A DNA stretch of 64,000 nt from an uncultured Ectothiorhodospiraceae bacterium (GTDB taxonomy: Bacteria; Pseudomonadota; Gammaproteobacteria; S012-40): positions 8,323 through 72,322 of the forward strand of contig CALZHW010000001.1 of assembly GCA_945787125.1 (NCBI GenBank), given 5' to 3'. Below are positions 3,395-61,405 of the stretch, piece after piece; position 1 is the first letter of the stretch, and every line of letters starts with the position of its first letter. The notes below the pieces were generated by a model, which was not told the origin of the DNA, did not search any database, and was given only the letters and a program-made list of their open reading frames with translations. The position numbers and the translations under genes are program-made.

Positions 3395-3470
3395 GCGTTC
3401 AAATTTTTTCCCATAACCAGCGCCCGCATTGGCAATGCCTTATCGAGAGTGTTGAACTCCGATTCTGCGT
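3395..3470. repeat. Family-A MITE-like palindromic element, truncated copy
   Basis: ttcccataaccagcgcccg...ccttatcgagagtgttgaactccgattctg matches the left arm and right terminus of the full element at 3801-3996. Confidence 0.5.
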
Positions 3471-3800
3471 TATATAATGTGTCTGGTAAGCCATGCTCCC
3501 TACTGATGGCGTTAAGTAAAGCACGAAGAATATGTAATGTCAAAAAAACGTCGCCTAATTGACAGTTTTTTTCCTTTTAAATACAGAGCCTTATATTTAG
3601 CTATAGTATAAATCTTTGATTTTACGCAATTTATATAGCAACGATTCACTTCCTTTATTTTTAGCCTCACAAGCATTCAGTAAAACCTATTGGCTCAGTA
3701 AAACACTCAACTTGGCAGACTTGTAATATGAAAATGTAAACGGAATAAAGTGCAATTCAAAAGCAACTTATGGTTCATGCAGAGCAGGGGAATACAAGAA

Positions 3801-3996
3801 CTCACAATCAGAGTTCAAACTATTTCCCATAACCAGCGCCCGTAGCGGCAAAACCTCATCGAGAGACGCCGGGAATACCCCTATGTAGGCTTGACGGCAG
3901 CATCCATGTGGCACATAGGGCAACACTCTCGATAAGGTTTTGCCGCTACGGGCGCTGGAAAGAGGCACTTTTGCAGCCCTGAACTCCAATTGTAAG
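3801..3996. repeat. Family-A MITE-like palindromic element (~195 bp), full copy
   Basis: Terminal inverted repeats ctcacaatcagagttcaaac / gaactccaattgtaag. Internal long inverted arms ccagcgcccgtagcggcaaaacctcatcgagag ... ctctcgataaggttttgccgctacgggcgctgg. At least 12 further copies in the window. Confidence 0.8.
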
Positions 3997-4010
3997 TAAA
4001 AATCACTGGC

Positions 4011-5957
4011 ATGTTTCATGCTGAAAGCAATAACTTATTCCATCAATCAATTAAGCGAATGAAGAATCCTGCTTTGATAGAAACCGACGATATAGCAACC
4101 GCATATTCTTTTTTTCAACAAGGAGAGTTCGCGCAGTCGAATCAAATATGTCAGCATTTATTGCAAAATAATAACAATGACATCGACGCATTAAACCTGG
4201 CGGGCATCGTTGCCGATGCGCAGAATAAACAACTAGATGCCATAACGTATTTCAAAAAAGCCGTTGCTTTAGCCCCTAAAAACGCCCAGATCTTCACCAA
4301 CCTCGCCACAACCTTAATGGATCTGAACGAAAACAGTGAAGCTATACGTTATTTAAAACGCGCTATCAAAGCGGACAAATACTATGCCGAAGCTCACTAC
4401 AATCTCGGCAACGCCTATTTAAAAAAAAATAAAACCAGCGACGCCAAGAAGGCGTTGCTTAATGCTATAAAATATGACAAAAAGCATTTCAAAGCACTAA
4501 ATAATTTGGCAAACATTTATGAAACCGAAGATCAGCTGGAGATCGCAAAAAAATACTACAAACTATCACTGACTTACAATCAAAATTTTTCCATCGCACT
4601 AAATGGCCTAGGCTCTATTTACATACACCAAGAAAAACTCGACAAAGCCATCGAATGTTTTAGCAAGGCGCTAGCAGATGGCAATGAAGCACTCCCTGAA
4701 ACCCTCAACAGCCTGGGATACGCCTGGTTTAAACTCGGTAATATGGCAAATGCTGAAAAATATTTCTTACAATCGCTTTCTCTGACGCCAGACAACGTAT
4801 TACCTTTGAATTATCTTGGGCTAATACACCAGGAGAATCGAGCACATCAACAATCCATTGAGTCGCTAGAAAAAGCACTCGAGATATCACCTGACGACAC
4901 CCAACTCCTCAATAATCTCGGCCATGTTACACGAGAAGTTGGCCAGTTTACAAAATCAATTTCTCTGTTTGAAATGGCGGTAAATAAAAACCAAAACAAT
5001 GACTCCATTGACCGATCAATGGCGCTCAATAATCTGGCACTTACACAATTGTTAACTGAAGACTTTAAAAACGGCTGGGACAATCACCGTTTTAGACCCG
5101 GTGTTATTGAGGGAAACTCGTCTCCCTTCCCAGATAGAGACTCACTCTGCTTGACTGACAAAAAAATTCTTTGGCGAAAAGATCAAGGAATTGGGGATGA
5201 ACTGCTATTCTTACGGTTTGCACCGCTGCTCAATAGTATTGCCGCGAAATTTTCCTACCGTAGCTCAGAGAAACTTTATCCATTGATTAAAGACTTGAGC
5301 TGCTTTGAAAATGTGTATGCAAACGACAATATAGAAGACCAATATGACTATCAATTTTCTATTGGTGATATTGCCTATTTATTTGAACATCGCCATGCTA
5401 TTGATACACCACAACCCATAAAGCTAACACCTGACGCATCAACACTTACACGCATAAGGCAGACATTGAACCAATTCGGTTCGCCTCCCTACATCGGGTT
5501 CACCTGGCAAGCTGGTATTTTGAAAAATAACAAACGCGTTGGCAACTACCATAAAACTATAGATATCGAATACTTGATCAACTTATTGCGCCCAATAAAT
5601 GGCACACTCATCTGCCTGCAAGTTAACGCAAATAATGAAGATTTAAAGTATTTGTCGCAACAATTGAACCGACCCATACTCGACGCCTCGCCGTTTCACA
5701 ATCAATTAGAAAAAATGCTCTGTATTTTACAATTGATAGACGAATATTTTGCGGTGAGCAATACTTATGTTCACCTGCGAGAATCATTGGGCAAGTCATC
5801 TCATATCTTTGTTTCCAATCCACCTGAATGGCGCTGGCTTAGCAACATAGATAAATCTTACTGGCAGCCCAATAGCAAAATTTATCGACAAGCGATAGAT
5901 GGCAGCTGGCAAGACGCAATAAAGCACTGTAAACACACTATGCAGATAATAGATTAA
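4011..5957 (+). CDS. TPR-repeat protein fused to GT9 (heptosyltransferase-like) glycosyltransferase domain; putative flagellin glycosyltransferase, paralog 1
   Basis: 648 aa. N-terminal half has multiple 34-aa TPR units (AxxYxxLG patterns). C-terminal half carries GT9-like motifs (QGIGDELLFLRF N-lobe motif; VSNTYVHL..G..SHIFVSNPPEWRW resembling the DSGxMHLA.A.G C-lobe motif). Stop TAA overlaps ATG of the next paralog (TAATG at 5955-5959). Confidence 0.6.
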   Translation: MFHAESNNLFHQSIKRMKNPALIETDDIATAYSFFQQGEFAQSNQICQHLLQNNNNDIDALNLAGIVADAQNKQLDAITYFKKAVALAPKNAQIFTNLATTLMDLNENSEAIRYLKRAIKADKYYAEAHYNLGNAYLKKNKTSDAKKALLNAIKYDKKHFKALNNLANIYETEDQLEIAKKYYKLSLTYNQNFSIALNGLGSIYIHQEKLDKAIECFSKALADGNEALPETLNSLGYAWFKLGNMANAEKYFLQSLSLTPDNVLPLNYLGLIHQENRAHQQSIESLEKALEISPDDTQLLNNLGHVTREVGQFTKSISLFEMAVNKNQNNDSIDRSMALNNLALTQLLTEDFKNGWDNHRFRPGVIEGNSSPFPDRDSLCLTDKKILWRKDQGIGDELLFLRFAPLLNSIAAKFSYRSSEKLYPLIKDLSCFENVYANDNIEDQYDYQFSIGDIAYLFEHRHAIDTPQPIKLTPDASTLTRIRQTLNQFGSPPYIGFTWQAGILKNNKRVGNYHKTIDIEYLINLLRPINGTLICLQVNANNEDLKYLSQQLNRPILDASPFHNQLEKMLCILQLIDEYFAVSNTYVHLRESLGKSSHIFVSNPPEWRWLSNIDKSYWQPNSKIYRQAIDGSWQDAIKHCKHTMQIID

Positions 5958-9778: not shown

Positions 9779-10456
9779 TTGTTACGAGTTTTTATTGGCT
9801 ATGACCCGAGGGAGTCTATTGCGTTTAGTGTACTCGCTCATAGTATTCAACAACGCGCCTCTCAACCGGTTGCAATCATTCCGATTGCATTAAGTAGTCT
9901 AGGTGCAATATACACGCGTGAACGCGACCCACTCCAGTCTACAGATTTTTCTTTTTCGCGATTTCTAACACCCTATCTCTGCAATTACGAAGGCTGGTCA
10001 GTCTTTATGGATTGCGACATGATTGTGCTTGACGATATCGTCAAGCTATTTGATCACGCCGATGAAAAGAGCGCCGTTATGTGTGTCAAACACAATCATG
10101 TACCTATGGAGCAAGTGAAATTCCTGGGCGCCCCACAAAGTCGGTATGAAAAGAAAAACTGGACCAGCGTTATGTTATTTAATAATAAAAAATGCCGGAA
10201 ACTGACTCCAGAATATGTAAATGAGGCATCTGGCCTGGAATTACATCAATTTAAATGGCTAGAATCAGATGATTTGATTGGTAAATTACCAGGCCGATGG
10301 AATCACTTGGTGGGTTTTGACGAAACCAACAAGGAGGTATCTCTTGTCCACTTTACCACTGGCGGCCCCTACTTTAAAGAATATCGAGATTGTGAGTATT
10401 CTGAAGAGTGGCTACATGAATTAAAAAGTATGGAAAATTGCGAGCAACAAAAATGA
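9779..10456 (+). CDS. hypothetical protein, possible GT-A fold glycosyltransferase (GT8-like DxD motif)
   Basis: 225 aa, TTG start. FIGYDPRE...AFSV N-terminus and FMDCDMIVLDDIVKLFD resemble the nucleotide-sugar binding / DxD region of GT8-type transferases. Follows the three TPR-GT genes in the same orientation. Confidence 0.35.
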   Translation: MLRVFIGYDPRESIAFSVLAHSIQQRASQPVAIIPIALSSLGAIYTRERDPLQSTDFSFSRFLTPYLCNYEGWSVFMDCDMIVLDDIVKLFDHADEKSAVMCVKHNHVPMEQVKFLGAPQSRYEKKNWTSVMLFNNKKCRKLTPEYVNEASGLELHQFKWLESDDLIGKLPGRWNHLVGFDETNKEVSLVHFTTGGPYFKEYRDCEYSEEWLHELKSMENCEQQK

Positions 10457-10992
10457 ATAATTTGGTAACCAACAACACTGAAACAACAGCAAACCTTGAC
10501 CAGAATGTTCTATTGAGTTTTCTGGATCACACTGTATTACAGATTTCACAGGCTCACAGTGCAGAAGAAGTAGATCTTTTGATGGATGACTTTTTATCGC
10601 ACGATGTCATTAATATTTTCAGAAACAACAGTGAAATGTTTAGTTTATTGAATGCTGTATGGCTAAACACCTTCAAACGTATATTTATTGAACAACGATC
10701 TGACAGTTTTCCATTAAAAGTATTGTGGCTACCGTTATTGTTCAATGACTTTGGATGGGAAATTGAAGACATAGAAACCTTTGAAAGTGCCAATATGTGT
10801 TTTCAAAGCCAACACCTTGATCAATCTGATCTCTATAAGCACCTGGTAGAATTATTTATGAATGGTTTAAAGTTCAACCCTCAGGTTTCATTCAACTTAT
10901 TCAAAAAACGCTTGGATAATTTGAAGCTATCAAATTCAGACCAAACCAAAGTTAAGACATTGATACAAGAAATTGAAGAACTTGGTTGGTGA
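10438..10992 (+). CDS. hypothetical protein
   Basis: 184-aa ORF overlapping the previous gene by 19 nt. No recognisable motifs. Last gene of the plus-strand island. Confidence 0.3.
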   Translation: MRATKMNNLVTNNTETTANLDQNVLLSFLDHTVLQISQAHSAEEVDLLMDDFLSHDVINIFRNNSEMFSLLNAVWLNTFKRIFIEQRSDSFPLKVLWLPLLFNDFGWEIEDIETFESANMCFQSQHLDQSDLYKHLVELFMNGLKFNPQVSFNLFKKRLDNLKLSNSDQTKVKTLIQEIEELGW

Positions 10993-10996
10993 TTTA

Positions 10997-11173
10997 TTCA
11001 AAAATTACTTCCCTTAATCAGCGCTCGTAGTGGCAAGGCCTTATCGAGAGTGTTGGCAGCATGGATGCTGCCGTCAAGCCTACACGGATGTACTCACGGC
11101 GTCTCACGATAAGGTTTTGCTACTACGAGCGCTGGAAGGTGGCACTTTTGCAACTTTGAAGTCCGATTGTGAG
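10997..11173. repeat. Family-A MITE-like element
   Basis: cccttaatcagcgctcgtagtggcaaggccttatcgagagtgttggcagcatggatgctgccgtcaagcctaca...ttgaagtccgattgtgag. Left TIR degenerate. Confidence 0.75.
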
Positions 11174-14380: not shown

Positions 14381-15823
14381 TTAACCTAACAGACTCAATA
14401 CATTTTGTGGAATTGAGTTTGCCTGAGCTAACATTGCTGTACCTGCTTGTTGCAGGATTTGCGAGCGTGTTAACTCAGCGGTTTCTACCGCAAAGTCAGC
14501 ATCACGAATTCGCGATCGAGCAGCACTCAAGTTTTCAATGCTTGTTTCCAAGTTAGATATGGTCGATGAAAAACGACTTTGCAAGGCACCAAACTTCGCT
14601 CGCTGACTACTCACTTGGGAAATTGCCGAATCAACCGTTGATAAAGCAAGGTTTGCTCCAGCAACAGTACTGACATCCAAATCAGCCACTTTCTGCAGTA
14701 CAGCTGTTTCAGAAGCCGTTGACAATACAAGAGATCCAGCACCTGTTGCAACAAAAGCTTTATCAGAATCAAATGTCACCTGGCCGGTCACATAGGCAGT
14801 ATCCGCAGTAGCATCCGCCGTTAACGTTGCAGCCCCGCCTGTGGATGTAACCGTTACATCACCTGCATTGGTAAACGTGGTATCTTGAAGATCAATATCT
14901 TTGCCGGCAAAGTTAGTTAAAGCAATTCCAGATCCGTCTTCCTTGATCGTTGCAATAACACCCGTTTTTGCTTGCTGATCATTGAATGCATTAACCGCTT
15001 GCGATAATGCATCGGTTCCAGAGGTCGCATCAATGTTAAAACTAACATCTACTGCCGTACTATTCTCTGACGCTAACGAAAAACGGTAAGTTCCTGCCGC
15101 AGCAAACGTCACGTCAGTTGTTGTTTGCGCGCTAGCTTTAACGCCGGTTTGATCAATTTTTAGATTAACCGAAGCCGCAATATCTTCTGCACTTGCACCA
15201 GCAGCAAAATCAATCGAGGATGTACCACCTGCGCCACTAACCTGAATGGAGCCTGCAGCAGCAATACGAGAGGCTGCAGCTGCACTACTATCATCACCGC
15301 TGAGACGATAATTACCATATTGTTGCGTTTTAAAGTTTGCCGTTGTCGCAACGATAGTCTCATTGGCATTTGCACCCACTTGAAATAGGGCTGTACCAAA
15401 AGTACCATCTAACAACTTTTGACCGTTAAATTCAGTCGTTTTTGCCAAACGATTCAACTCGGACGTTAACTCACCCACCTCTAATTGTAGTGCAGCACGA
15501 TCCGATGCTGAGTTAGTTGCGTTCGCTGATTGCACAGCTAATTCACGCACTCGTTGCAGAATATTTCCTGCTTCGGTTAATGCCCCTTCAGCCACCTGTG
15601 AAAGTGAAATACCATCGTTGGCATTTCGTGAAGCAACGGTCAACCCACGAACTTGTGAAGAAAAACGCTCAGAAATTGCCAAACCAGCGGCATCATCTTT
15701 TGCGCTATTGATACGCAAACCAGACGATAAACGCTGCAATGAAGTCGACAAGCTGCTCTGAGATTTATTTAAATTTCGTTGAGAATTCAACGACATAACA
15801 TTAGTATTGATCATTTGAGGCAT
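14381..15823 (-). CDS. fliC: flagellin (filament subunit), copy 1
   Basis: 480 aa with conserved flagellin D0/D1 termini ([50 protein letters not shown]...; C-terminus ...[29 protein letters not shown]) and a variable Ala/Thr/Ser-rich centre. Confidence 0.9.
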
Positions 15824-15989: not shown

Positions 15990-16215
15990 ACGTTGCCGCT
16001 TTGAACTACTAGGAGCAATTGTCGACGAGTCCATGGATGGATGAAGGTACGAATCCATGGATGGATGAAGGTAGAACAATGCAGGAGCAATTGTCGAGAA
16101 CAATGCACTAGGGCAGGACGCCCATAGGTACGAGCCCATGGATGGGTGAAGGTAGAACAATGCAGGAGCAATTGTCGAGTATAACGCAGGAGCAGTTATC
16201 GAGGAGCAATTGTCG
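15990..16215. repeat. tandem direct-repeat tract between the two flagellin genes
   Basis: Motif AGGAGCAATTGTCGAG at about 16011, 16083, 16162 and 16203, with a degenerate copy at 16189. Motif CCATGGATGGATGAAGGTA at about 16031, 16055 and 16137. About 80-bp higher-order unit repeated twice. Confidence 0.6.
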
Positions 16216-16385: not shown

Positions 16386-16477
16386 CTCACAATCAGAGTT
16401 CAAAGTTACAAAAGTGCCGCCTTCCAGCACCCGTAGCGGAAGGTGGCACTTTTGCAAGTTCGAAGTCCGATTGTGAG
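16386..16477. repeat. Family-A element, short hairpin-only variant (92 bp)
   Basis: ctcacaatcagagttcaaagttacaaaagtgccgccttccagcacccgtagcggaaggtggcacttttgcaagttcgaagtccgattgtgag: only the outer palindrome is present. Lies 45 bp downstream of the flagellin-2 stop. Confidence 0.7.
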
Positions 16478-16523: not shown

Positions 16524-17969
16524 TTAACCCTGCAACAAGCTCAATACATTTTGCGGTACTTGATTCGCCTGAGCGAGCATCGCAGTGCCTGCTTGCTGTA
16601 AGATTTGCGACCTGGTTAACTCGGCGGTTTCTACCGCAAAGTCAGCATCCATAATTCGCGACCGAGCAGCGCTGAGATTTTCAACTGACGTTTCAAGATT
16701 AGAGATAGTAGAGACAAACCGGTTTTGCAAAGCACCAAACTTTGCCCGTTGTGAACTGATCTGCGCCAGCGCAGAATCAGCAATAGACAGCGCCAGATTT
16801 GCATTATCAACTGTACCAATATCAAAGTCCGCAACCTTCATTAAAATCGATGCGGATGAAGCCGCTGAGGCAACTATTGATGCAGTGCCCTGCATGGTAA
16901 ACGCTTTGGTTGAATCAAATGTTATGCGGCCAGATACGATTGCGTTATCTACTGTGGTATCTGCATTTAACGTGATTGATGAATTTAATGTATCAACAAC
17001 AACATTACCAGAATTTGCGAAATTCGTATCCTGCACAGTAATATTTTTACCCGCATGTTGGGTCAAAGAAATTCCGCTGCCATCATTTTTAACGGTAGCT
17101 ATCACCCCGGTTTTAGCTGAAGCATCATTAAATGCCGATGCGGCTATTGAAAGTGCTTCTATACCAACAGTATCTGAAATGTTAAACCCTATGGTTTCTG
17201 CAACGGCATTATCACCCATGATGCGCAAACTATATGATCCAGCCGCCGTAAAACTCAAATCAACCTCAGTAAAAGCTGAGGCAGTTACCGCGGTATTTTC
17301 GTTAACCAGGTTAATCGAGGTTGCGATGTCTTCTGCCGTATCAGTTGCTGCATAAGTGACTGTAGCAGTGCCACTGGAACCACTAATCGAAATCGAGCCA
17401 CCTGCCGCGAAACGACTTGCTGCAGCCACAGAATCATCAAAACCTTCAATACGATAATTGCCGTATTGTTGGGTTTTAAAATTTGCCGTAGTGGCAACAA
17501 TTGATTGATTGGCGTTGGAACCCACCTGAAATAACGCCGTGCCAAAGGTTCCATCAAGAATTTTCTGTCCATTAAACTCTGTTGACTTCGCAATCCGATC
17601 CAACTCTGCCGTCAATTGTGAGACTTCCAGTTGCAGCGCTTGCCGGTCGCTCGGAGAATTAGTCGCATTAAGTGACTGTATGGCTAACTCTCGCACCCGC
17701 TGCACGATATTGCCTGCCTCCTCCAACGCACCCTCGGCCACCTGGGACAGCGAAATACCGTCATTTGCATTTCTTGCAGCCATCGCCAGGCCTTTAATTT
17801 GCGAGGTAAAACGCTGCGATATCGCAAGTCCGGCCGCATCATCTTTTGCGCTATTAATTCGCAAACCTGATGACAAACGTTGCAATGATGTCTGCAACGA
17901 ACTTTGTGATTTATTTAAGTTGCGTTGGCTGTTTAAAGACATGATGTTAGTGTTGATAATTTGAGGCAT
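16524..17969 (-). CDS. flagellin, copy 2
   Basis: 481 aa, paralogous to copy 1 with conserved N- and C-terminal helices and a divergent central domain. Confidence 0.9.
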
Positions 17970-22319: not shown

Positions 22320-22467
22320 GCGTGTATCCAGGTTTTTTTAATGAGTCACCTGAGAAGCTTCAATTAGCGTGCCATTTTTGAGTATTGGCGTGAGATTTCT
22401 ATTCAGGGTTGTCGCTATGGACACGAACTGCGAGAAAAATAATTGAACTACTATTGTAAGTTACTAC

Positions 22468-22666
22468 TCACAATCGGAATTCAAACTATTCCTAGGAATC
22501 AGCGCTCGTAGTGGCAGGGCATTATCTTATAGAGAGTAGAGAGTGTTGGCAGCAGGGATGCTGCCTTCAAGCCTACAAGGACGTATTCACGGCGTCTCTC
22601 GGTAAGGTTTTGCCGCTGCGGGTGCTGGAAGGTGGCACTTTTTTCATTTTGAACTTCGATTATGAG
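22468..22666. repeat. Family-A MITE-like element
   Basis: ctcacaatcggaattcaaactattcc...gcgctcgtagtggcagggcattatc...tgaacttcgattatgag. Inserted between flgI stop and flgJ start. Confidence 0.8.
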
Positions 22667-22669
22667 TTA

Positions 22670-23791
22670 CTAAATTACAATAAGCTCGGCTTTTAAAGAT
22701 CCTGCTTCTTTCAACGCTTCAAGGATAGCGACTAGATCACCTGGCGCAGCCCCGACTTCGTTGACAGCTCTAACAATTTCATCCAAAGAAACACCAGGAC
22801 TAAATTTAAACATGCGACTATTAGCTTGCTCTAGTTCGATATTCGTTTGCGGTACCACGACTGTTTCACCGTCAGCGAGAGGGTTTGGCTGCGAGACAGC
22901 GGCATTCGGGGTAATTCTGACCGTTAAATTGCCGTGTGATACTGCCGAAGCGGCAACTCTGACATGACTACCGATGACGACCGTGCCCGTGCGTGAATTT
23001 ATAATGACTTTTGCCGCAGCTTCGCCTGGGTTAACCTCTATATTTTCCAATACTGATACAAAACTCACACGTTGCGACACATCTCGCGGTGCAATCACAC
23101 TCACGGTAGAGCCGTCCAGCGAACGCGCTGTGCCGTCACCCATCAGTTTATTGATCGCATCCGACAAACGTTTGGACGTGGTAAAGTCTGATGAATTCAA
23201 GTTTAGAAAAATACTATTACCCTGACTAAAGCTCGACGTAACACTGCGTTCAATTGATGCACCATTGGGTATTCTACCGGTACTAGGAATATTAACCGTA
23301 ACACGCGAACCATCTTGTGCCGCACCAAAACCACTGACCACTAGATTTCCCTGTGCTATCGCATAAATATTACCATCTGCACCCTTCAAAGGAGACATCA
23401 ACAAACTACCACCACGCAAACTTTTCGCGTTACCAATAGAAGACACGGTGATATCAATGGATTGGCCAGGTTTAGCAAAAGGCGGCAACTCGGCCTGTAT
23501 CGAAACTGCGGCAACATTTTTCAGCTGTGGTGTAACATTTGGCGGCAGAGTAATGCCAAATTGTGCCAGCATGCTTTTCAAGCTTTGCACGGTGAACGGT
23601 GTTTGCGAGGTTTGATCGCCAGTGCCATCCAAACCAACCACCAAGCCATAACCAATCAACTGATTGCTTCTGACACCGGCAATGCTCGCTAAGTCTTTTA
23701 CTCGCTCTGCATAAGCCGTATTAAAAAACGCCAGTATAAGTATCAGTAAAAATAATCGTTTTATCGTTTTGTTTAACATTAGAATTTCCAT
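22670..23791 (-). CDS. flgI: flagellar P-ring protein FlgI
   Basis: Conserved FlgI body (...[29 protein letters not shown]...). Start chosen at the ATG whose A overlaps the flgH stop (TAATG coupling), giving signal peptide [28 protein letters not shown]. Alternative starts are TTG at 23806 or ATG at 23779. Confidence 0.85.
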
Positions 23792-26141: not shown

Positions 26142-26157
26142 TGCAATTCATAGGCCT
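26142..26157 (-). promoter_or_regulatory. possible sigma-54 promoter upstream of flgF
   Basis: Reverse strand reads AGGCCTATGAATTGCA (GG-N10-GC with a perfect -12 TTGCA; -24 element weaker). Confidence 0.3.
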
Positions 26158-26248: not shown

Positions 26249-26527
26249 AGTCAGCACCCGCAACGGTAAAGCCTTGCCGCTACGGGTGTGCTGGAAGGTG
26301 GCACTATGCAACTACTGAACTCTGATTGTAAGTTACAATCAGAGTCAACTACTCTCCATAACCAGCGTCAGTAGTGACAAAGCCTAATCGAGAGTGTCGG
26401 CAGCATGGATGCTGCCGACAAGCCTACAGGGACGTATTCACAGCGTCTCTCGATAAAATTTTGCCACTACGGGCGCTAGAAGGCGGCACTATGCAACTTA
26501 TGCAACTACCGAGTTCCGATTATAAGT
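26249..26527. repeat. Family-A elements: truncated right-half copy (26249-26332) abutting a full copy (26333-26527)
   Basis: First copy ends ...ggtggcactatgcaactactgaactctgattgtaag. A full copy ttacaatcagagtcaactactctccataaccagcgtcagtagtgac...gagttccgattataag follows immediately. Lies between flgF start and flgE stop. Confidence 0.8.
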
Positions 26528-29634: not shown

Positions 29635-29650
29635 AGCAAACCTCGTGCCA
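29635..29650 (-). promoter_or_regulatory. sigma-54 (-24/-12) promoter of the flgB operon
   Basis: Reverse strand reads TGGCACGAGGTTTGCT, a perfect TGGCAC-N5-TTGC. The TSS would fall about 30 nt upstream of the flgB ATG at 29590. Confidence 0.6.
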
Positions 29651-29900
29651 CAGCTAAAAATCACTTGCGAAAGTATTTTTATAATTATAATTCAATGACT
29701 TAAAGCCTTGCAAAAAAATACTTTGAAATATTCGGAGGCCATCAACAGGCATGAAGGCAAAGGATTGCTGAAGCGGCAAAGACCGACCTGCCGCATTTGT
29801 TGATGCAAATTGTTTTTCCAATCTCGAACAAACCAATCTGCTGAATGCGGCTTTTATCGTGATTAACTAGTCGCAAAATAGTCAAATGATGAAGTTAGGA

Positions 29901-30096
29901 TCTCAAGTTTCGGGGCTCAACTAGTCTCCATAACCAGCGCCTGTAGTGGCAAAGCCTTATCGAGAGTGTTGGCATTGGCAGCCTGGAAGCTGCCACCAAG
30001 CCCACAGGGACGTGTTCGCGGCGTCTCTCGGTAAGGTTTTTGCCGCTACGGGTGCTGGAAGGTGGCACCTTTACAACTTTGAACTCCGATTGAAAG
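29901..30096. repeat. Family-A MITE-like element
   Basis: ...ctccataaccagcgcctgtagtggcaaagccttatcgagagtgttggcattggcagcctggaagctgcc...ggtggcacctttacaactttgaactccgattgaaag. Lies between cheR stop and flgB operon promoter. Confidence 0.8.
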
Positions 30097-30147
30097 TTAG
30101 GATAATGGTGTGGGGAACTTACTAAATTCTCAAAAAATACAGACTAA

Positions 30148-34576: not shown

Positions 34577-34760
34577 CCCACAACATTCAAACTATCCTCC
34601 ATAATCAGCACTCGTAGTGGCAAGACTTTTCGAGAGTGTTCGCAGCAGGGATGCTGCCGTCAAGCCTACAGGGATTTATTCACGACGTCTCTCGGTAAGG
34701 TTTTGCCGCTACGGGTGCTAGAAGGCGGCACTTTTGCAACTTTAAATACTGAAGTTTAAG
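34577..34760. repeat. Family-A MITE-like element
   Basis: cccacaacattcaaactatcctccataatcagcactcgtagtggcaagacttttcgagagtgttcgcagcagggatgctgccgtcaagcctacaggg...gcacttttgcaactttaaatactgaagtttaag. Inserted between the GT2 and DUF2064 genes. Confidence 0.75.
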
Positions 34761-35444
34761 TTAATAATATTTCCTAACTAACTTATGCGGTGAAACACCC
34801 AAAAAAAACGCCAAACGCAAACGCCACATTAAAACAATCGTTTTCCAAATACCTTTTTGCTCCCAACGACGACTTGACGTCAGTACTTTTTGCGCCAAAC
34901 AAACCGGACGCGAGTTTTTTTTCAGTGAGTTAGACAGAGAAATATCTTCCATCAAAGGGATTTCTACAAAGCCCCCTAGCTTTTCAAAGACTGATTTTTT
35001 AACAAAAATGGCTTGATCGCCCGTGGCAATGCCGGAAAGTTTCGAACGCCAGTTGATCATAAATTCTATCAGGCGAAACATCCGGTGCCTACCTGATAAC
35101 TGCACATCAAATCGCCCCCAATCTCTCCTGCTAGTTTGCAGTGCGCTAAAAATAACAGTGTCAAACCTTGCTGGCAAACGGGTATCAGCATGCAAAAAAA
35201 GCAAAATTTCGCCAGTCGCTTTGCTCGCCCCAAGATTCATTTGCACAGCGCGCCCAGCATGACCGGATTCAAAAACTTTGTCAGTATAAGCTCGAGCGAT
35301 ATCCACCGTGTGGTCACAACTGCCGCCGTCAACCACAATCACTTCCAGACCATCAAGCTTGCATAATAACGCTAAACCAGTCGCGATAGTTTCCTGCTCG
35401 TTCAGCACAGGAATAATGATACTGAGCCGACATGTTGCAAACAC
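34761..35444 (-). CDS. GT2-family glycosyltransferase (TIGR04283-like)
   Basis: 227 aa, LSIIIPVLNEQETIATGLALL...EVIVVDGGSCDHT...LFLHADTRL: the GT-A DxD (VDGGS) and LHADT motifs typical of this small GT2 subfamily. Confidence 0.6.
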   Translation of the reverse strand: MFATCRLSIIIPVLNEQETIATGLALLCKLDGLEVIVVDGGSCDHTVDIARAYTDKVFESGHAGRAVQMNLGASKATGEILLFLHADTRLPARFDTVIFSALQTSRRDWGRFDVQLSGRHRMFRLIEFMINWRSKLSGIATGDQAIFVKKSVFEKLGGFVEIPLMEDISLSNSLKKNSRPVCLAQKVLTSSRRWEQKGIWKTIVLMWRLRLAFFLGVSPHKLVRKYY

Positions 35445-36533: not shown

Positions 36534-36695
36534 CCTAGAATAATCAGTTGGCGCGAATTTTTAGTGCAAGATATTGAAGTGCATAGTGAATTCAAGAATT
36601 GCATGGTCACCTAATTGGTGATCTGCATATTTTTGAATTTGCTAGGCGCATCAAGAGCTTGTGCTAGAAATCGTGGTTCAACTGATTAATCTAGG
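36534..36695. repeat. Family-B MITE-like element (162 bp, 17-bp terminal inverted repeats)
   Basis: cctagaataatcagttg...caactgattaatctagg. About 96% identical to the copy at 47981-48142. Confidence 0.7.
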
Positions 36696-40068: not shown

Positions 40069-40254
40069 CTCACAACCGGAGTTCAAAGTTGTAAATGTGC
40101 CACCTTCCAGCGCCCGTAGCGGCAAAACCTTACCGAGAGACGCCGTAAATACATCCTTGTGGGCTTGACGGCAGCATCCCTGCAACACTCTCGATAAAGG
40201 CCTTGCCACTACTGGCGCTGATTACAAGGAATAGTTTGAACTCCGAAACTTAAG
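40069..40254. repeat. Family-A MITE-like element (opposite orientation)
   Basis: ctcacaaccggagttcaaagttgtaaatgtgccaccttccagcgcccgtagcggcaaaaccttaccgagagacgcc...ctctcgataaaggccttgccactactggcgctg...tttgaactccgaaacttaag. Overlaps the last codons of asnB. Confidence 0.8.
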
Positions 40255-42025
40255 ATTTGAGATTTGTTTGCAGCCAATACTCTAATAATGTTAAGTGCCA
40301 CAATTTACTGCCATTAAGCCGTGTCAACTGTGACTCAGGATTTGCGAGTAATTGATCAACGTATGATCGTTGATATAAACCGCGCTCAATGCATGCTTGG
40401 GAGTTTAGAATATCAGCCATGAAATCGAGGAATTCACCACGCACATATTTTAACGCGGGCATGGGAAAATAACCTTTTGGACGATCGATCACTTTGTCTG
40501 GCAGCAAGCCACGGCTAATTATTTTAAGCGGATGCTTACCGTCAGATTTCAATTTTAATTCCGGCGGCATTTGCGCTGCCAATTCTACCAGGTGCTGATC
40601 CAGAAAAGGAACTCGTGCTTCTAAGCCCCAAGCCATCGTCATATTATCCACCCGCTTTACCGGGTCATCCACAACCAGGGTGGTAACATCCGCGCGTAAT
40701 ACCGCATCCATAAACGTTTCAGCTTGGGGTGAATGTAATAACTCATCCATCAGCATCGAACTGTAATCCTCAGTGAGGTAGTTCGGTGTCAGCATTTGCG
40801 CAAACTCTGCGTGATCTCGATCAAAATAATGTTGGCGAAAACGTTCAATCGGTGTGCCTGATGCGTCAGCCATGCGTGGATACCAGAAATAACCCGCGAA
40901 GACTTCATCCGCGCCTTGACCACTTTGTACCACTTTGACGTGTTGAGAAACTTGTTCAGATAACAAATAAAAAGCCACTGCATCCTGACCGAACATCGGC
41001 TCCGCCATATTGGCTACTGCTTCCGGCAAACGTTTCAATACTTCATCATTAGAGACATGCATTTTATGATGTTTCGTCTGAAATTTTTCAACCACCGCAT
41101 CAGAAAACTCAAACTCACTGCCTTTTTCATCGGCGATATCTTCAAAGCCAATCGAAAAAGTTAGAATATCTTTCACCTCCGCTTCCGCCAGCAATGCCAC
41201 TAGCAAACTGGAATCCAGACCACCCGATAACAAAACACCCACCGGCACATCAGCGACTTCTTTTCGTATTTTAACGGCTTTACGTAAGGCTGCATGAATT
41301 GCGTCAATCCACTCGGGTTCAGACAGGATTTTATCAGGTCGTTTAGCCCTTAAATCCCAATATTGCCACTCATCAACCTGACCATTTGCATCAATTAACA
41401 AGGCATGCGCTGGCTTCATTTTTTTAATGCCTTTGAACAGCGTGCGAGGTGCCGGCACAACGGCATGCAAAGAAAATAAATTATGTAACGCTAGGGCATC
41501 AAGGTTAGTATCAACGTCACCCACATTCAACAATGACTGCATATTGGAAGCGAAACGAAATTTCTTATTATCGTGCTGGAAATACAAGGGTTTTATACCC
41601 ATACGATCACGTGCAGCAAACAGTTGTTGTTTCTGCAAATCCCAAATGGCAAAGGCAAACATGCCGTAAAAATGCTGCAAACACTCTTTGCCCCAATGAT
41701 GATATGCTTTAATAATAACTTCGCTATCACCCTCGGTAAAAAAAGTATAACCTTTCTGCGCCAACTCTTTACGCAACGCTTTGTAATTATAGATTGTGCC
41801 GTTGAAAACCAAAACCATCTGCAACGCTGCATCATGCAGCGGTTGATTAGACTTTTCTGACAAATCAATAATTGATAATCGACGATGTCCAAAGCCTAAT
41901 GAGCCATCAAAGAATTGACCAGCATTATCCGGACCGCGACGCTCAATTGCCTGCATCATCGCATCTATCGTGCGACTCTCTACTGCCGCCCCATCAAACC
42001 GTAATTCGCCACATATGCCACACAT
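40250..42025 (-). CDS. asnB: asparagine synthase (glutamine-hydrolysing), AsnB family; could be a sugar/EPS amidotransferase of this family
   Basis: 591 aa. N-terminal MCGI Ntn glutaminase nucleophile and SGGLDSS PP-loop ATP pyrophosphatase motif. Confidence 0.75.
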   Translation of the reverse strand: MCGICGELRFDGAAVESRTIDAMMQAIERRGPDNAGQFFDGSLGFGHRRLSIIDLSEKSNQPLHDAALQMVLVFNGTIYNYKALRKELAQKGYTFFTEGDSEVIIKAYHHWGKECLQHFYGMFAFAIWDLQKQQLFAARDRMGIKPLYFQHDNKKFRFASNMQSLLNVGDVDTNLDALALHNLFSLHAVVPAPRTLFKGIKKMKPAHALLIDANGQVDEWQYWDLRAKRPDKILSEPEWIDAIHAALRKAVKIRKEVADVPVGVLLSGGLDSSLLVALLAEAEVKDILTFSIGFEDIADEKGSEFEFSDAVVEKFQTKHHKMHVSNDEVLKRLPEAVANMAEPMFGQDAVAFYLLSEQVSQHVKVVQSGQGADEVFAGYFWYPRMADASGTPIERFRQHYFDRDHAEFAQMLTPNYLTEDYSSMLMDELLHSPQAETFMDAVLRADVTTLVVDDPVKRVDNMTMAWGLEARVPFLDQHLVELAAQMPPELKLKSDGKHPLKIISRGLLPDKVIDRPKGYFPMPALKYVRGEFLDFMADILNSQACIERGLYQRSYVDQLLANPESQLTRLNGSKLWHLTLLEYWLQTNLKS

Positions 42026-47980: not shown

Positions 47981-48142
47981 CCTAGAATAATCAGTTGGCG
48001 CGAATTTTTAGTGCAAGATATTGAAGTGCATAGTGAATTCAAGAATTGCGTGGTCACCTAATTGGTGATCAGCATATTTTTAAATTTGCTAGGTGCATCA
48101 AGAGCTTGTGCTAAAAATCGTGGTTCAACTGATTAATCTAGG
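47981..48142. repeat. Family-B MITE-like element
   Basis: Near-identical to 36534-36695. Begins 1 nt after the ABC gene stop codon. Confidence 0.75.
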
Positions 48143-56468: not shown

Positions 56469-56483
56469 TATCGCCTCCGCTGT

Positions 56484-57362: not shown

Positions 57363-57436
57363 TTTTATCCCTTTAAGGTAGTGCTATCTTATGTGTTACA
57401 AATAATAACCAGTAAGGCTCTCAATACAAACTTAAA

Positions 57437-57787
57437 ACTCAAGTTACGGAGTTCAAAGTTGTAAAAGTGCCACCTTCCTGCACCCGTAGCGGCAAAACCT
57501 TAGCGAGAGACGCCGTGAATACGTCCATGTAGGATACTCTACGGTATGGGCGACGAGGGCGGGAGGCCTATCTACAAAGACAAGCTCATGGCTTAAGGCT
57601 TGAGCGGCCTTCCCGGATACTTCTTCATCGTACTTTAAATGACCGGATTAGTCCTGTCGCATAACCTTTTGGTTACTGAATTTGATCATACAAGGCTTGA
57701 CGACAGCATCCGTGCTGTCAACACTCTCGATAAGGCCTTGCCACTACGAGTGCTGATCACGGGAAATAGCTTGAACTCCGATACTTG
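57437..57787. repeat. Family-A element split by a nested ~170-bp insertion (left half 57437-57528, insert 57529-57698, right half 57699-57787)
   Basis: The left half actcaagttacggagttcaaagttgtaaaagtgccaccttcctgcacccgtagcggcaaaaccttagcgagagacgccgtgaatacgtccatgtagg and the right half cttgacgacagcatccgtgctgtcaacactctcgataaggccttgccactacgagtgctg...ttgaactccgatacttg together reconstruct one element. Confidence 0.65.
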
Positions 57788-57947
57788 CGTTAAAACATGC
57801 ACTGCAAACAAATATCAATGAATAATTAGAAAGATTCGGCCATACAAAAATTAGAACCAAAAATATTAAATATTCCGCCTTATGGTAATCTGCATTTTAT
57901 AGTTACTCAGTGCTGCATCACGGAAAAACTTATTATTTTTACAAAAA

Positions 57948-58002
57948 CTCACAATCAGCGTTCAAAATGAAGAAAGTGCCACCTCCAGCCACTCAGTGCA
58001 CT
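57948..58002. repeat. Family-A element remnant (terminus only)
   Basis: ctcacaatcagcgttcaaaatgaagaaagtgccacctccagcc. Confidence 0.4.
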
Positions 58003-58353: not shown

Positions 58354-58378
58354 TCTAAACGAGAGAAAAAACCTCAAC

Positions 58379-59956
58379 GTGCTGTTCAACTCCTATATAT
58401 TCATTTTTGCTTTTCTTCCTGCAACTTTTCTCGTCTATTTTTTATTGGCTCGATACAGAGGAGGTGAAGCCGCTATCGGCTTCCTTGTCATTGCATCGTT
58501 GTTCTTTTATGGGTGGTGGAACCCCATCTATCTCGTATTAATACTGTGCTCCATTGGCGTCAACTATTTTGTTGGTGAAACCATCTCGAAAATTTGTAAA
58601 CAAAAAAACATCCTGCGAGCAAAAGTGCTACTTATTGTTGGAATTGTTTTCAATCTCGGGCTGCTCGCCTATTTCAAGTACGCAAATTTTTTCGTAGAAA
58701 ACGCTAATGCCGTACTGGAAACCAACATTCATCTCAATCAAATTATCTTGCCATTAGCCATTTCATTTTTTACTTTTCAGCAGATTGCCTACTTAGTAGA
58801 CGCCTACAAAGGAATAACTGAAGAGTTTAGGTTCATTCACTATGCTCTATTTGTCACCTTTTTCCCCCAGCTTATTGCGGGGCCTATAGTGCATCACAAA
58901 GAAATGTTGCCGCAATTTATGCGATTGGAAAACATGAAGCCGCAACTGGAAAATATTGTGATTGGCATAAGCATATTTTCTCTCGGCCTGTTCAAAAAGG
59001 TCGTGCTTGCTGATGGAATTGCGCAATACTCTACTCCGATATTTGATGCCGCAGCGTCTGGCGAAACTCTGACTTTTTTTGCTGCGTGGGGAGGCGCACT
59101 GGCTTATACCTTTCAATTATATTTTGATTTTTCCGGTTATTCTGATATGGCAATCGGGATAGCAAGAGTATTCGGTATTCGCTTACCACTAAATTTTGCG
59201 TCGCCCTACAAATCATTAAGCATTGTTGAGTTCTGGCGTCGTTGGCACATCACCTTATCGCGCTTTCTACGCGACTATGTTTACATTGCACTAGGCGGAA
59301 ACCGCAAAGGTAATGTACGTCGTTATACAAACCTGCTGACGACCATGTTGCTGGGCGGCTTATGGCACGGAGCAGGTTGGACCTTCGTATTATGGGGCGG
59401 ACTGCACGGCCTGTATCTGGTGATTAATCATATTTGGAGTCACATAAAAATACGCTTAAATCTGCAATGGCTTGATGGCTTTCGGGGTTGGCACTTTTTC
59501 AGCTGGCTGTTAACTTTCGTATCCGTCGTCAATGCTTGGGTCTTCTTTCGCGCCGAGAGCCTGAGCGCCGCACTTGAGATTATAAAAGGAATGTACGGTT
59601 TCAATGGCATTGCTATCCCGAATGCGATTTACACGCGACTCGGCAGCATGCAAGGCATACTCAATGAAGTCGGTATTAACAGTTATATAGGTGGTGGCGC
59701 TCAGTTTGTATTCACCTACTTGTGGATAGCGGTACTATTGCTCGTGGTAGTGATAATGCCAAATACACAGCAGATCATGAAAGGTTATTTACAAATTAAC
59801 GCCAAACAAGGTAATGCTCTGTTCGATGAAGGCATCGCTTCGCGCTTGATGACATTCAGGTTTAATGTCGCTTGGGCATTATTGATGGCAGGAGTGATGG
59901 TGATAGCGCTGTTTGGACTCTCCCGCGTTTCTGAATTTTTATATTTCCAATTTTAA
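58379..59956 (+). CDS. MBOAT-family membrane-bound O-acyltransferase (AlgI/DltB-like)
   Basis: 525 aa polytopic. Conserved MBOAT histidine region (WRRWHITLSRFLRDYVYIALGGNRKG) and LWHGAGW motif. Confidence 0.8.
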   Translation: MLFNSYIFIFAFLPATFLVYFLLARYRGGEAAIGFLVIASLFFYGWWNPIYLVLILCSIGVNYFVGETISKICKQKNILRAKVLLIVGIVFNLGLLAYFKYANFFVENANAVLETNIHLNQIILPLAISFFTFQQIAYLVDAYKGITEEFRFIHYALFVTFFPQLIAGPIVHHKEMLPQFMRLENMKPQLENIVIGISIFSLGLFKKVVLADGIAQYSTPIFDAAASGETLTFFAAWGGALAYTFQLYFDFSGYSDMAIGIARVFGIRLPLNFASPYKSLSIVEFWRRWHITLSRFLRDYVYIALGGNRKGNVRRYTNLLTTMLLGGLWHGAGWTFVLWGGLHGLYLVINHIWSHIKIRLNLQWLDGFRGWHFFSWLLTFVSVVNAWVFFRAESLSAALEIIKGMYGFNGIAIPNAIYTRLGSMQGILNEVGINSYIGGGAQFVFTYLWIAVLLLVVVIMPNTQQIMKGYLQINAKQGNALFDEGIASRLMTFRFNVAWALLMAGVMVIALFGLSRVSEFLYFQF

Positions 59957-59960
59957 TCAA

Positions 59961-61181
59961 ATGCCGATAAAAAAATATCTCTATCTTTATATTGCGCTAC
60001 TGTTAACAGTAGCATCATTGTTGGCGGCATTTAATGCGATTGTTGACCCGTATATGCTATTCCACACAGAGCGCATATCAAACTTTAACGATAAAAAACC
60101 TGCATTAATCAATCGAGCCCAGCTATATAAACCCTACAGCGTCGTAAAGGTTGCTCCACAGACAATTATAGTCGGCAATTCACGCCCCGAAATGGGGCTT
60201 GATCCCCGCTCAACATGCTGGTTACCCGAACATGGCACGGTCTACAGCCTAACATTTCCCGGCTTAAGTGCTTATGGGCAGACGCGCGCATTGTTTCATG
60301 GCATGGCAAGTGGCAACGTTAAACACGCATTATTAGGATTGGACTTCGCCGATGCACTCTATCGTAGGGGGCAATTCGTTAAGGAGGTAACATGGCCAGC
60401 CAAGAGCACAGAATTTTTCGATCGACTACTCGTAGATGAACAGGACAAAGAAAATCCACGTCAATGGCTAGCCAAGGTAAAAGATACATTTATGGCTCTA
60501 TTCTCGTTGGATACACTCTTTGATAGCCTATATACCGTCGCCTTCCAATCACCAAACAGCCCTGACCGAACACCACTGGGTTTTAATCCTGCCATGGATT
60601 ACGTTGATATAGTTCGTCATGAGGGTGAATGGGTTTTATTTAGTCAAAAACTCGATGAACTGGAATCGCGCTTTTCAAAAGTCGGACTAAGTATTTTCGA
60701 TACAGTAGGGCATTGGTCGATTGAGCTGGAAGGACTAAGACGAGCAATAGAGTTAGCCGTACAACGCGACATTCATTTAACGCTATTTATCAACCCCTAT
60801 CACTACACCTACTTGGAAAGCATTCGTGATGCAGGGTATTGGGATGAGTTCGAGCAATTCAAACGCAGCCTGAAAGACTTGGTTGATGACTATGCCGGTG
60901 GTAAAGTCGAACTTTGGGATTTTTCCCTCTATTCATCGTACACAGTATCACCAGTACCACTAAAAGGTAGTGCAAACGTATTTAACTGGTTTTGGGAACC
61001 TGCCCATTATAAGGCGGCGCTTGGAGATATTATGTTAGCTGAATTATTTGGAAAGCAATGTGTTCCCGAAAAAAATGAAACTCCTCTGGGAGTCCGCCTG
61101 AATGAAGTGGATATTGGAATTCATCTCCGCAATCAAAATGAGAAACGTGTGGCGTTGTTAAAAGATGTTGTAAATCAATAA
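59961..61181 (+). CDS. hypothetical membrane-anchored protein, possible MBOAT partner (AlgJ/DltD-like role)
   Basis: Start moved to ATG at 59961 (MPIKKYLYLYIALLLTVASLLAAF signal-anchor) so it follows the MBOAT stop. The call rests on position directly after an MBOAT gene. No firm motif. Confidence 0.35.
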   Translation: MPIKKYLYLYIALLLTVASLLAAFNAIVDPYMLFHTERISNFNDKKPALINRAQLYKPYSVVKVAPQTIIVGNSRPEMGLDPRSTCWLPEHGTVYSLTFPGLSAYGQTRALFHGMASGNVKHALLGLDFADALYRRGQFVKEVTWPAKSTEFFDRLLVDEQDKENPRQWLAKVKDTFMALFSLDTLFDSLYTVAFQSPNSPDRTPLGFNPAMDYVDIVRHEGEWVLFSQKLDELESRFSKVGLSIFDTVGHWSIELEGLRRAIELAVQRDIHLTLFINPYHYTYLESIRDAGYWDEFEQFKRSLKDLVDDYAGGKVELWDFSLYSSYTVSPVPLKGSANVFNWFWEPAHYKAALGDIMLAELFGKQCVPEKNETPLGVRLNEVDIGIHLRNQNEKRVALLKDVVNQ

Positions 61182-61218
61182 TGAATTCTTCTTTTAATGT
61201 TTTATTACTCATATTTAG

Positions 61219-61405
61219 CTCACAATCGGAGTTTAAATATTTTTCTCATAATCAACGCGCGTAGCGGCAAAACCTTATCGAGAGTGTTCGGCATGGATGC
61301 CACCCCAAGCCTACAGGGATGTATTCACGGCGTCTCTCGGTAAGGTTTTGCCGCTACGGGTGCTGGAAGGTGGTACTTTTGTAACTTTGAACTCCGAAAC
61401 TTGAG
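61219..61405. repeat. Family-A MITE-like element
   Basis: ctcacaatcggagtttaaatatttttctcataatcaacgcgcgtagcggcaaaaccttatcgagagtgttcggcatggatgcc...ggtggtacttttgtaactttgaactccgaaacttgag. Confidence 0.8.

Follow-up and report, generated by a model that had tools for sequence, protein, structure and literature searches.

The YPAL repeat is said to have been described by De Gregorio et al. in 2006 as a miniature inverted-repeat transposable element (MITE) of Yersinia. According to Delihas 2008 (PMC2229807), from which we take its properties, YPAL lacks true terminal inverted repeats (TIRs), is flanked by target-site duplications (TSDs) of 3-26 bp, inserts beside dyad symmetry just past stop codons and is co-transcribed with neighbouring genes, with possible stabilization of the mRNA. 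Yersinia genomes hold 37-144 copies each (PMC2847712; copy numbers are also given in PMC2267715), and the 168-nt RU-2 (YPAL) sequence published by Delihas contains the consensus of the Rfam family Ysr224 (PMC2759123), a multicopy Yersinia ‘small RNA’ that ranks with the commonest Rfam families of bacterial genomes (PMC12112432, PMC9029176). Here we compare these systems with a repeat, which we term family A, in a 64,000-nucleotide stretch of DNA (the window; 43% G+C) from an uncultured Ectothiorhodospiraceae bacterium (assembly GCA_945787125.1, contig CALZHW010000001.1, positions 8,323 to 72,322). Family A is a mobile, non-coding MITE, and its central module is probably distantly related to that of YPAL.

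The 13 intervals listed in a first-pass annotation of the window form one repeat family, since a repeat finder groups all 13 together, and their coordinates were correct to within 1-2 nt. With an nhmmer profile built from 8 copies, full copies (177-200 bp) were recovered at E-values of 1e-46 to 1e-58 and fragments at 1e-3 to 1e-14; two small remnants, at 22428-22460 and, more weakly, at 29867-29894, lie beyond the 13. Family A sums to 2179 bp, or 3.4% of the window as a whole and 24% of the intergenic sequence. Of the 27 intergenic gaps that measure 40 bp or more, 10 are occupied. Identity between copies is 75-87% (mean 81%; that is, they are 13-25% different), which indicates an old family with no recent burst.

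A full copy consists, in order, of a TIR of 19-20 nt, a left spacer of about 13 nt (CTATTTCCCATAA), the left arm, the core, the right arm, a right spacer of about 20 nt (AAGGTGGCACTTTTGCAAC) and the second TIR. The arms are complementary, about 33 nt each, with the left one ending in GAGAG, and enclose an asymmetric core of about 55 nt. The TIRs claimed earlier are real. Twelve matches to the type-1 TIR (CTCACAATCRGAGTTCAAA) were found with up to 3 mismatches, compared with 0.03 expected, and 5 to the type-2 terminus (CTCAAGTTTCGGAGTTCAAA), compared with 0 expected; both ends of copies carry TIR matches, the end sequence of family A elements being CTCACAATCGGAGTTCAAA. The long internal arms exist as well, with 95% of arm cells pairing on one strand. 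The term ‘palindromic’, also applied to the element at first, holds for the TIRs and arms but not in the sense of a simple palindrome, because the spacers between TIR and arm are unlike on the two sides and the core is asymmetric. These unequal spacers, together with the asymmetric core, give the element an orientation. Variant forms comprise a hairpin-only form, an internal deletion, a half copy abutting a full copy, an inverted core and a core split by an insert. No conserved reading frame runs through the element, and no open reading frame (ORF) longer than about 90 codons crosses any copy.

Flanking sequences were compared for 9 complete copies whose ends are fixed by the TIRs, 8 in the window and 1 at locus L083 in a second metagenome-assembled genome (MAG), GCA_945786995.1. 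Perfect 6-bp TSDs flank three of the nine (TTACTA, TTAAAA and TTATAA) and a perfect 7-bp TSD flanks one (TTAGGAT); in two more, five of six positions agree (ATTTAG/ATTTAA and ATTTAA/ATTTGA). Judged against random intergenic 6-mer pairs, the probability of at least three perfect 6-mers in nine is 2e-8, so that the duplications looked for, of 6-7 bp, are indeed present. The L083 copy lies between prfC and tatD, is 78-87% identical to the window copies and has the perfect TSD TTATAA. It is annotated within P0001, a 110-amino-acid ‘protein’ mostly read across the copy, and therefore confirms both the dispersal of the family and the warning in the first-pass annotation that the elements create spurious ORFs.

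Gene order in the cheR-flgBCDEFGHIJKL-flagellin region is kept in relatives, which allowed the orthologous junctions to be inspected. By nhmmer and a covariance model of the core, no element was found in the syntenic cheR-flgB...flgL loci of 80 relatives (1.25 Mb), nor in L088, the nearest relative found (FlgJ 63% identical). The flgI|flgJ, flgE|flgF and cheR|flgB spacers measure 155, 180 and 208 bp in L088, compared with 350, 432 and 536 bp in the window. The relatives compared are distant (FlgJ at most 65% identical), so that the absence does not establish recent mobility; the best FlgI match among GTDB species representatives is 75% identical. Of the eight copies with an upstream gene, five lie within 10 nt of its stop codon and the other three 37-51 nt downstream. 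The close insertions are those at flgI, where the stop codon is inside the TSD, at a GT2 gene, whose TAA is abutted, at asnB, where the element supplies the stop, at flgE (10 nt) and at ORF 10438-10992 (4 nt). Three copies directly adjoin an older copy or remnant (22428-22460, 26249-26332 and, less clearly, 29867-29894).

Since family A has TIRs and 6-7 bp TSDs, contains no ORF and is absent from the same junctions in relatives, it is a MITE, both mobile and non-coding. The MITE-like, mobile character proposed at first is upheld by these features and by the insertions near stop codons. Copies were inserted by a cut-and-join reaction that duplicates a 6-7 bp AT-rich target starting TTA or ATTT. 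They are presumably moved by a transposase encoded elsewhere, which may prefer targets at the base of a hairpin, be it a terminator or an older copy, in line with reports on YPAL. The additional claim of an invasion of the flagellar regulon is not supported as a specific one. Four of the ten occupied gaps lie amid housekeeping genes (sulfate activation, glutaredoxin/asnB, rhamnose and others), a further copy is at prfC|tatD in the second MAG, and flagellar and non-flagellar gaps are occupied at similar rates. A specific role in the flagellar loci is not supported.

Searches for the family elsewhere returned little. No additional copies were present in about 3 kb beyond each end of the window, into which it was extended through edge proteins. 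A 23-nt arm pattern had no matches in a genome collection of species representatives other than the source species and a single match, by chance and inside a coding region, in metagenome contigs. A whole copy gave no BLAST match in plasmids, and core and TIR patterns gave none in viral contigs. Searching with the translated element ORFs yielded only one true copy (P0001) and four distant cores.

The relationship to YPAL emerged from the core. At gathering thresholds no Rfam family matches the window; in a permissive search Ysr224 (RF02770) was the only family to match the elements repeatedly, at six copies, with scores of 25.5-35.2 bits and a best E-value of 3e-4 for the whole window. The RU-2 sequence (PMC2759123) aligns to the family A core over 60 nt with 23.9 bits, and a common covariance model gives 75.7 bits for the Yersinia pseudotuberculosis YPAL and 68-86 bits for the window copies. 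This shared core suggests that family A is a distant relative of YPAL.

The core had been described as variable, but once other organisms are compared it is the most conserved part of the element. The same core of about 55 nt tops lineage-specific long stems in many hosts. It was found in Yersinia, Pantoea and Enterobacter megaplasmids, on one Shewanella plasmid, in three metagenome contigs (46-67% G+C) and, as a fragment, on plasmids of Escherichia coli, Klebsiella and Citrobacter; an unrelated MAG (L084, GCA_018401595.1) has three YPAL-type cores within 320 bp (9860-10180). We aligned 22 sequences from the window, Yersinia, Enterobacter, Pantoea, Shewanella, enterobacterial plasmids and four metagenome or MAG contigs. 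In this alignment, which is model-guided and hence fitted to the model, 94% of cells pair and 16 of the 19 pairs show compensatory changes. None of 500 shuffles was as good and no slid register came close. When 13 sequences were aligned independently with MAFFT, the result was similar, with fewer events. The structure comprises a closing stem, hairpin 1, a 3-bp helix and hairpin 2, and the most conserved letters are those of the closing pairs and of both loops, each of which reads C-A-N-G-G-A-N-G. Covariation in the arms between family A copies was not significant (3 compensatory cells; 94 of 500 shuffles as good), so that selection for the long stem after insertion is not demonstrated and the cross-lineage core alone shows covariation.

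A MITE that is recognized by a transposase normally conserves its termini and not its centre. Lineage-specific termini and arms around a conserved 55-nt apex are the reverse of this, and suggest a conserved partner that reads the two GGA loops. This pattern, variable termini around a covarying and deeply conserved apical core whose twin loops fit the CsrA consensus, is what lifts the family above the routine. The core may be read in single-stranded form by a sequence-specific factor, for which CsrA/RsmA acting on RNA would be the best candidate and the mobilizing enzyme acting on DNA the alternative.

Some further observations concern the core. Of the three cores in L084, one is truncated and the other two are intact, each with its own closing stem; a 94-amino-acid protein is annotated across two of them. 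At 3975-4095 of L085, and in plasmid matches H8-H22, there is a YPAL-like element 75% identical to the Yersinia YPAL. It is carried on conjugative plasmids of wastewater E. coli, Klebsiella, Citrobacter and Shigella, within a chromosomal-looking fragment flanked by remnants of IS26, ISKpn26 and Tn5403. The short reading frame that opens with the ATG of hairpin 1 (MDAAVKPT.MYSRRL...) was rejected as a coding sequence; its substitutions do not favour synonymous positions and no suitably spaced ribosome-binding site lies ahead of it.

Several points weigh against our assignment of family A to mobile relatives of YPAL. The Ysr224 scores of 25.5-35.2 bits are under the curated gathering threshold of 70 bits. 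Three of the nine copies have no TSD, namely those at 3801 and 16386, the termini of which are intact, and that at 26333, which abuts another copy. No autonomous insertion sequence with these termini was found, and the window contains no transposase. The comparison of occupied with empty sites covers distant relatives, the nearest being 63% identical in FlgJ. With regard to function, a U-tract after the hairpin is absent from the coding strand at every copy, a scan for terminators and promoters gave no excess, and every proposed effect on mRNA would be by analogy with described elements. With these points taken into account, we put at about 0.8 the probability of the reading that we favour, in which family A is a non-autonomous MITE distantly related to Yersinia YPAL/RU-2/Ysr224.

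Of the other explanations, the one that survives best holds that the elements, or their cores, are regulatory RNA modules selected by the host, serving as dispersed CsrA/RsmA sites or sponges in untranslated regions. Such a role would be compatible with a mobile origin, and a transcript of the GGA strand would then show two CsrA/RsmA-binding hairpins. Both loops fit the RsmE optimum CANGGANG, in which GGA lies in a hairpin loop and of which the full form is (A/U)CANGGANG(U/A) (PMC6849547). Hairpin 2, (C)UACA-N-GGA-Y-GUA, agrees at 10-11 of 12 positions with RUACARGGAUGU, the CsrA consensus obtained by systematic evolution of ligands by exponential enrichment (PMC6849547). Throughout the 22 sequences C, A, GGA and G are conserved, the variable positions are mostly the two N, most clearly in hairpin 2, and the stems covary. 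Fifteen of the 30 matches to CANGGANG in the window fall inside elements, where about 1 is expected, and all are on the same element strand. Of 16 elements from various lineages, 12 fold better on the GGA strand. Within family A the arms of this strand hold 39 G.U cells that correspond to A.C mismatches on the other strand, although these derive from about six ancestral sites and therefore represent few independent events. The two GGA motifs are about 23 nt apart, a distance that one CsrA dimer can bridge, and paired GGA hairpins are an accepted signature of a CsrA dimer site.

A similar inference of CsrA binding has been published for the TwoAYGGAY and Bacillaceae-1 RNAs (PMC4333381). Like the family A core, these candidate CsrA-binding RNAs (Weinberg 2010; RMfam 2015) have two hairpins with A-N-GGA-N loops, which were taken to be bound together by one CsrA dimer; they differ in occurring in other hosts and have not been described inside a transposon-like palindrome. 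The elements gave no match to the Rfam models of TwoAYGGAY or Bacillaceae-1, even at E-values up to 1, or to those of CsrB, RsmY and RsmZ. Other observations speak against CsrA. The orientation of the elements is unbiased, with the UCC strand in the mRNA at flgI|flgJ, flgE|flgF, cheR|flgB and GT2|DUF2064, and the GGA strand at three or four of the window copies. CsrA does not account for AAGCC and UUCACGGCGUC, which are further conserved blocks of the core, Rfam models Ysr224 on the opposite strand, and we found no literature linking CsrA with YPAL. Furthermore, the centre may be conserved simply because the element's own enzyme reads it. We consider a host-selected regulatory role unlikely, and the narrower proposal that the core of family A, YPAL and their look-alikes serves, on the opposite strand to that of the Rfam Ysr224 model, as a mobile and portable module for CsrA/RsmA binding is, as a prediction from motifs and folds, slightly more doubtful still. 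Predicted CsrA binding, to which we give a low probability, is not the main explanation. If it were correct, each insertion would plant a high-affinity CsrA dimer site, or the insertions would jointly form a CsrA sponge, and a MITE family would rewire or buffer the Csr/Rsm regulon. Ysr224, an abundant ‘small RNA family’, would then be reinterpreted as dispersed CsrA sites on a mobile element.

One site in the window touches on this subject. TGTAAGTTACTACTCACA, at 22455-22472, is the only perfect match in the window to TGTRAG-N6-CTYACA, which we take to be the upstream box of GacA/UvrY. It is noteworthy because Gac/Uvr controls the sponge RNAs of the Csr/Rsm system. The site is formed by two element ends that face each other across a 6-bp duplicated target. 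With up to one mismatch there are 2 matches (the other, at 50465, has one mismatch), compared with 0.42 expected, and the match is probably accidental.

A second alternative is that the elements have been domesticated as terminators or attenuators that replace the native ones at flagellar boundaries and so set the stoichiometry of flagellar gene products. In L088 an intrinsic terminator, identified by scoring, lies 24 nt past flgI (9-bp stem and T-run), and a terminator-like hairpin can be seen by eye past flgE; in the window, elements take these positions. The scan found no terminator-like site on the coding strand at flgI|flgJ or flgE|flgF in the window, and the hairpins of the elements are extremely stable. 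As predicted at first, RNA folding gives very stable structures, with energies of -84.9, -60.4 and -57.1 kcal/mol (z-scores of -9.4, -4.5 and -12.4, respectively). However, no U-tract follows the hairpins in either orientation, the elements also occur in promoter-side divergent gaps (3801 and 57438) and among unrelated genes, and they face either way with respect to transcription. Scanning for sigma70 promoters and for terminators showed no enrichment and gave only two weak outward hybrid promoters (30079 and 34741) and one terminator-like site on the noncoding strand. The suggestion that the elements act as terminators is not borne out by these results, and we regard domestication for this purpose as improbable.

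The same comparison bears on the idea that the elements re-partition flagellar operons. A sigma54-type promoter upstream of flgJ (TGGCACGCTAATTGAA, 22359-22374) is identical in L088. A sigma54-type motif lies upstream of flgB (TGGCACGAGGTTTGCT, 29635-29650) and a possible one upstream of flgF (26142-26157), and comparable motifs are present in the flgB and flgF spacers of L088. Given the terminator and the terminator-like hairpin of L088 and the retained sigma54-type promoter, these junctions look like operon boundaries older than the element. On this sequence evidence the boundary at flgI|flgJ, and probably that at flgE|flgF, appears to pre-date the element, which would have landed at or beside terminator hairpins. 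The case for re-partitioning is weak, since these junctions are already boundary-like in relatives. The right spacer TGGCACTTTTGCA was itself considered as a sigma54 promoter and rejected, the spacing from GG to GC being 3 nt shorter than in the sigma54 consensus.

If family A is a MITE related to YPAL, as we favour, copies inside transcription units would be co-transcribed and would fold into a stem of about 60 bp. By analogy with YPAL, the most plausible role for this stem is not that of a classical terminator but that of a 3' barrier or a site of processing, through which the upstream mRNA would change in stability. The likeliest effect would therefore be a generic one, in which a large hairpin in the 3'-untranslated region changes mRNA decay or processing, as has been claimed for YPAL, ERIC and Correia elements.

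A third alternative would place family A with the REP/REPIN repeats. REP classes are defined by tags of the GTAG/CGTC type (PMC3733652). Spread would then take place via single-stranded DNA by a tyrosine HUH transposase of the RAYT or IS200/IS605 type, which would recognize the core hairpins together with a GTAG or CGTC tag. On one strand of the core GTAG stands 7 nt away from hairpin 1, the edge of the core has CGTC, the arms contain GTAG, the strong strand asymmetry of pairing would suit a single-strand intermediate, and it is the apical hairpins, not the termini, that are common across lineages. Like REP/REPIN-RAYT repeats (PMC3733652), family A consists of palindromic intergenic repeats downstream of genes that carry GTAG tags. 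It differs in having 6-7 bp TSDs and long (19-nt) TIRs, which are features of DDE-type and not HUH transposition, and in its size of about 190 bp, far above the 20-40 bp of REP units; moreover, there is no RAYT-like gene in the window or near any related copy. We judge this mode of spread very unlikely. An artefact of assembly or binning, which might be suspected since the source is a MAG, can be dismissed, as the copies are 13-25% different and have unique flanks, three contigs from another assembly of this organism (L001, L086 and L087) contain the same copies, and a related copy occurs in another MAG.

The individual copies are as follows. The element at 3395-3470 (plus strand) has an internal deletion; part of the left TIR is followed by the left spacer and arm, which run straight into a right TIR (nhmmer match 3393-3455, E 9e-14; TIR match 3451-3469). 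The full copy at 3801-3996 (plus strand) occupies the divergent region between fleQ and a TPR gene, 14 nt 5' of the ATG of the latter, and was identified by nhmmer (E 4.5e-46) and by a minus-strand match to covariance model R1 (69 bits). Its core, 3860-3931, is inverted with respect to the outer spacers, and both arms, which complement each other almost perfectly, have the ‘right-arm’ type of sequence. This points to an inversion, or to a snap-back, between the inverted arms of 33 nt. The copy at 10997-11173 (plus strand; nhmmer E 5.6e-58) has lost most of its left TIR and starts 4 nt after ORF 10438-10992, between convergent genes; its core (11045-11108) scores 85.9 bits and its match to Ysr224 35.2 bits. 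The short hairpin-only form reported after a flagellin gene is confirmed at 16386-16477 (no strand assigned), 46 nt past the stop of the flagellin gene at 16524-17969. It has TIR matches at both sides, a right-type spacer on each side and a 16-nt arm remnant as its loop, and the core is absent; the fold at -57.1 kcal/mol (z -12.4) is its own.

Among the flg genes, the remnant at 22428-22460 (minus strand) consists of the left TIR and left spacer of an older copy that faces the copy at 22467 across the 6-bp duplicated target; it is below nhmmer length and was recognized by direct reading and comparison with the L083 copy. The full copy at 22467-22666 (plus strand), between flgI and flgJ, has the perfect TSD TTACTA (22461-22466 and 22667-22672), which includes the flgI stop codon. 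It was recovered at E 1.8e-57, has a core at 22538-22601 (85.9 bits) and is present as an identical copy on contig L001 of an independent assembly. The partial copy at 26249-26332 (plus strand) retains an arm hairpin, the right spacer and the right TIR (nhmmer match 26264-26331, E 4e-12; TIR match 26314-26332) and stands end to end with the full copy at 26333-26527 (plus strand; nhmmer E 1.6e-51; core 26389-26452, 85.1 bits), which lies in flgE|flgF, 10 nt past the flgE stop. Between cheR and flgB, the full copy at 29902-30096 (plus strand; nhmmer E 5.3e-56) has one type-2 and one type-1 terminus and the perfect 7-bp TSD TTAGGAT (29895-29901 and 30097-30103).

The remaining copies lie in the right half of the window, where genes around the first two were assigned by Pfam. 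The full copy at 34577-34760 (plus strand; nhmmer E 4.9e-55; core 34631-34694, 82 bits) has a decayed left TIR and abuts the TAA stop of the GT2 gene (34761-35444), in the gap between this gene and that for a DUF2064 protein. The full copy at 40069-40254 (minus strand; nhmmer E 1.5e-57) separates asnB from a glutaredoxin gene and has the TSD ATTTAA/ATTTGA, identical at 5 of 6 positions. Here the last codon and the TAA stop of asnB (40250-40260) come from the end of the element; reconstruction of the empty site, by removal of the element and one TSD copy, gives the same C-terminus (...NLKS*) and the same 591 amino acids. The full copy at 57438-57789 (minus strand), with the perfect TSD TTAAAA (57432-57437 and 57790-57795), was recovered as two nhmmer half-matches (E 2.6e-28 and 1e-23) because its core is split by an insert of about 165 nt. 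This insert, 57533-57697, falls between GTAGG and CTTGAC; no similar sequence was found elsewhere, it has no Rfam match and its fold is unremarkable (z -1.1). At 57948-58002 (minus strand) there is a terminal fragment of TIR (1 mismatch) and right-type spacer (nhmmer match 57949-57989, E 0.0015). The full copy at 61219-61405 (plus strand; nhmmer E 4.8e-56; core 61279-61339, 73.4 bits) begins 37 nt after ORF 59913-61181, has type-1 and type-2 termini and the TSD ATTTAG/ATTTAA (5 of 6 positions), and gives the RNA fold of -84.9 kcal/mol (z -9.4).

The flagellar genes of the window are fleQ, a TPR/glycosylation block, fliD/S/T, two flagellin genes, flgL to flgB, cheR, a cheW-receiver gene, flgA, flgM and flgN; the left end of the window, or the sequence just outside it, encodes FleQ and a second sigma54 activator. 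From about 34 kb onwards the genes are of the housekeeping type and include those for GT2, DUF2064, radical SAM, an extracytoplasmic function sigma factor, ATP sulfurylase/APS kinase, glutaredoxin and AsnB, and further for oxoprolinase, SodB, ArgD, ArgF, an ABC ATPase, cytochrome c, rhamnose biosynthesis and MBOAT. Other repeats are present in the window. A second MITE-like family has two copies, 36534-36695 and 47981-48142, which are 97% identical over about 164 bp and have 17-nt TIRs (CCTAGAATAATCAGTTG ... CAACTGATTAATCTAGG); the CTAG at both ends may be a 4-bp duplication, and weak, sub-threshold Rfam matches to MicX lie beside the copy at 47981-48142. Between the two flagellin genes, upstream of that at 14381-15823, three units of about 60 nt (16021-16188) hold CCATGGATGGATGAAGG (CATCCATCCATGG on the coding strand) and CAATTGCTCCTGCATTGTTC motifs. 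The tandem flagellin paralogues (14381-15823 and 16524-17969) share a stretch that is 72% identical in DNA (repeat family D5).

As a MITE family in an uncultured bacterium, family A belongs to ordinary genome natural history, and knowledge of it is of use mainly in annotation, where it explains false ORFs and false ‘small RNA’ calls. Correia/NEMIS elements of Neisseria and ERIC/IRU elements of enterobacteria resemble it in size class, in having TIRs and TSDs, in their high intergenic density and in forming long co-transcribed hairpins with reported effects on mRNA processing or stability (PMC2229807). They have no sequence similarity to family A and duplicate TA rather than 6-7 bp, and we found no IHF site or promoter in family A. 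The resemblance to YPAL goes further. The two share a homologous central module of about 60 nt and, more weakly, the adjoining right spacer (GGCACTTTTGCAAC compared with GGCACTTTGTCAAT); they are of similar size (168 compared with 177-200 bp), neither codes for protein, both occur in many copies and carry the core at the tip of a long stem, and both have TSDs, insert just past stop codons and beside dyad symmetry, and give rise to spurious ORFs. They differ in that the arms and termini are unrelated in sequence and in that family A has TIRs of 19-20 nt at its very ends and TSDs of 6-7 bp, whereas YPAL has no true TIRs and TSDs of 3-26 bp. The host of family A is an uncultured marine gammaproteobacterium and not an enterobacterium and, provided that the window represents its genome, the family is denser there, with an occupied site every 6 kb, than YPAL is in Yersinia genomes.

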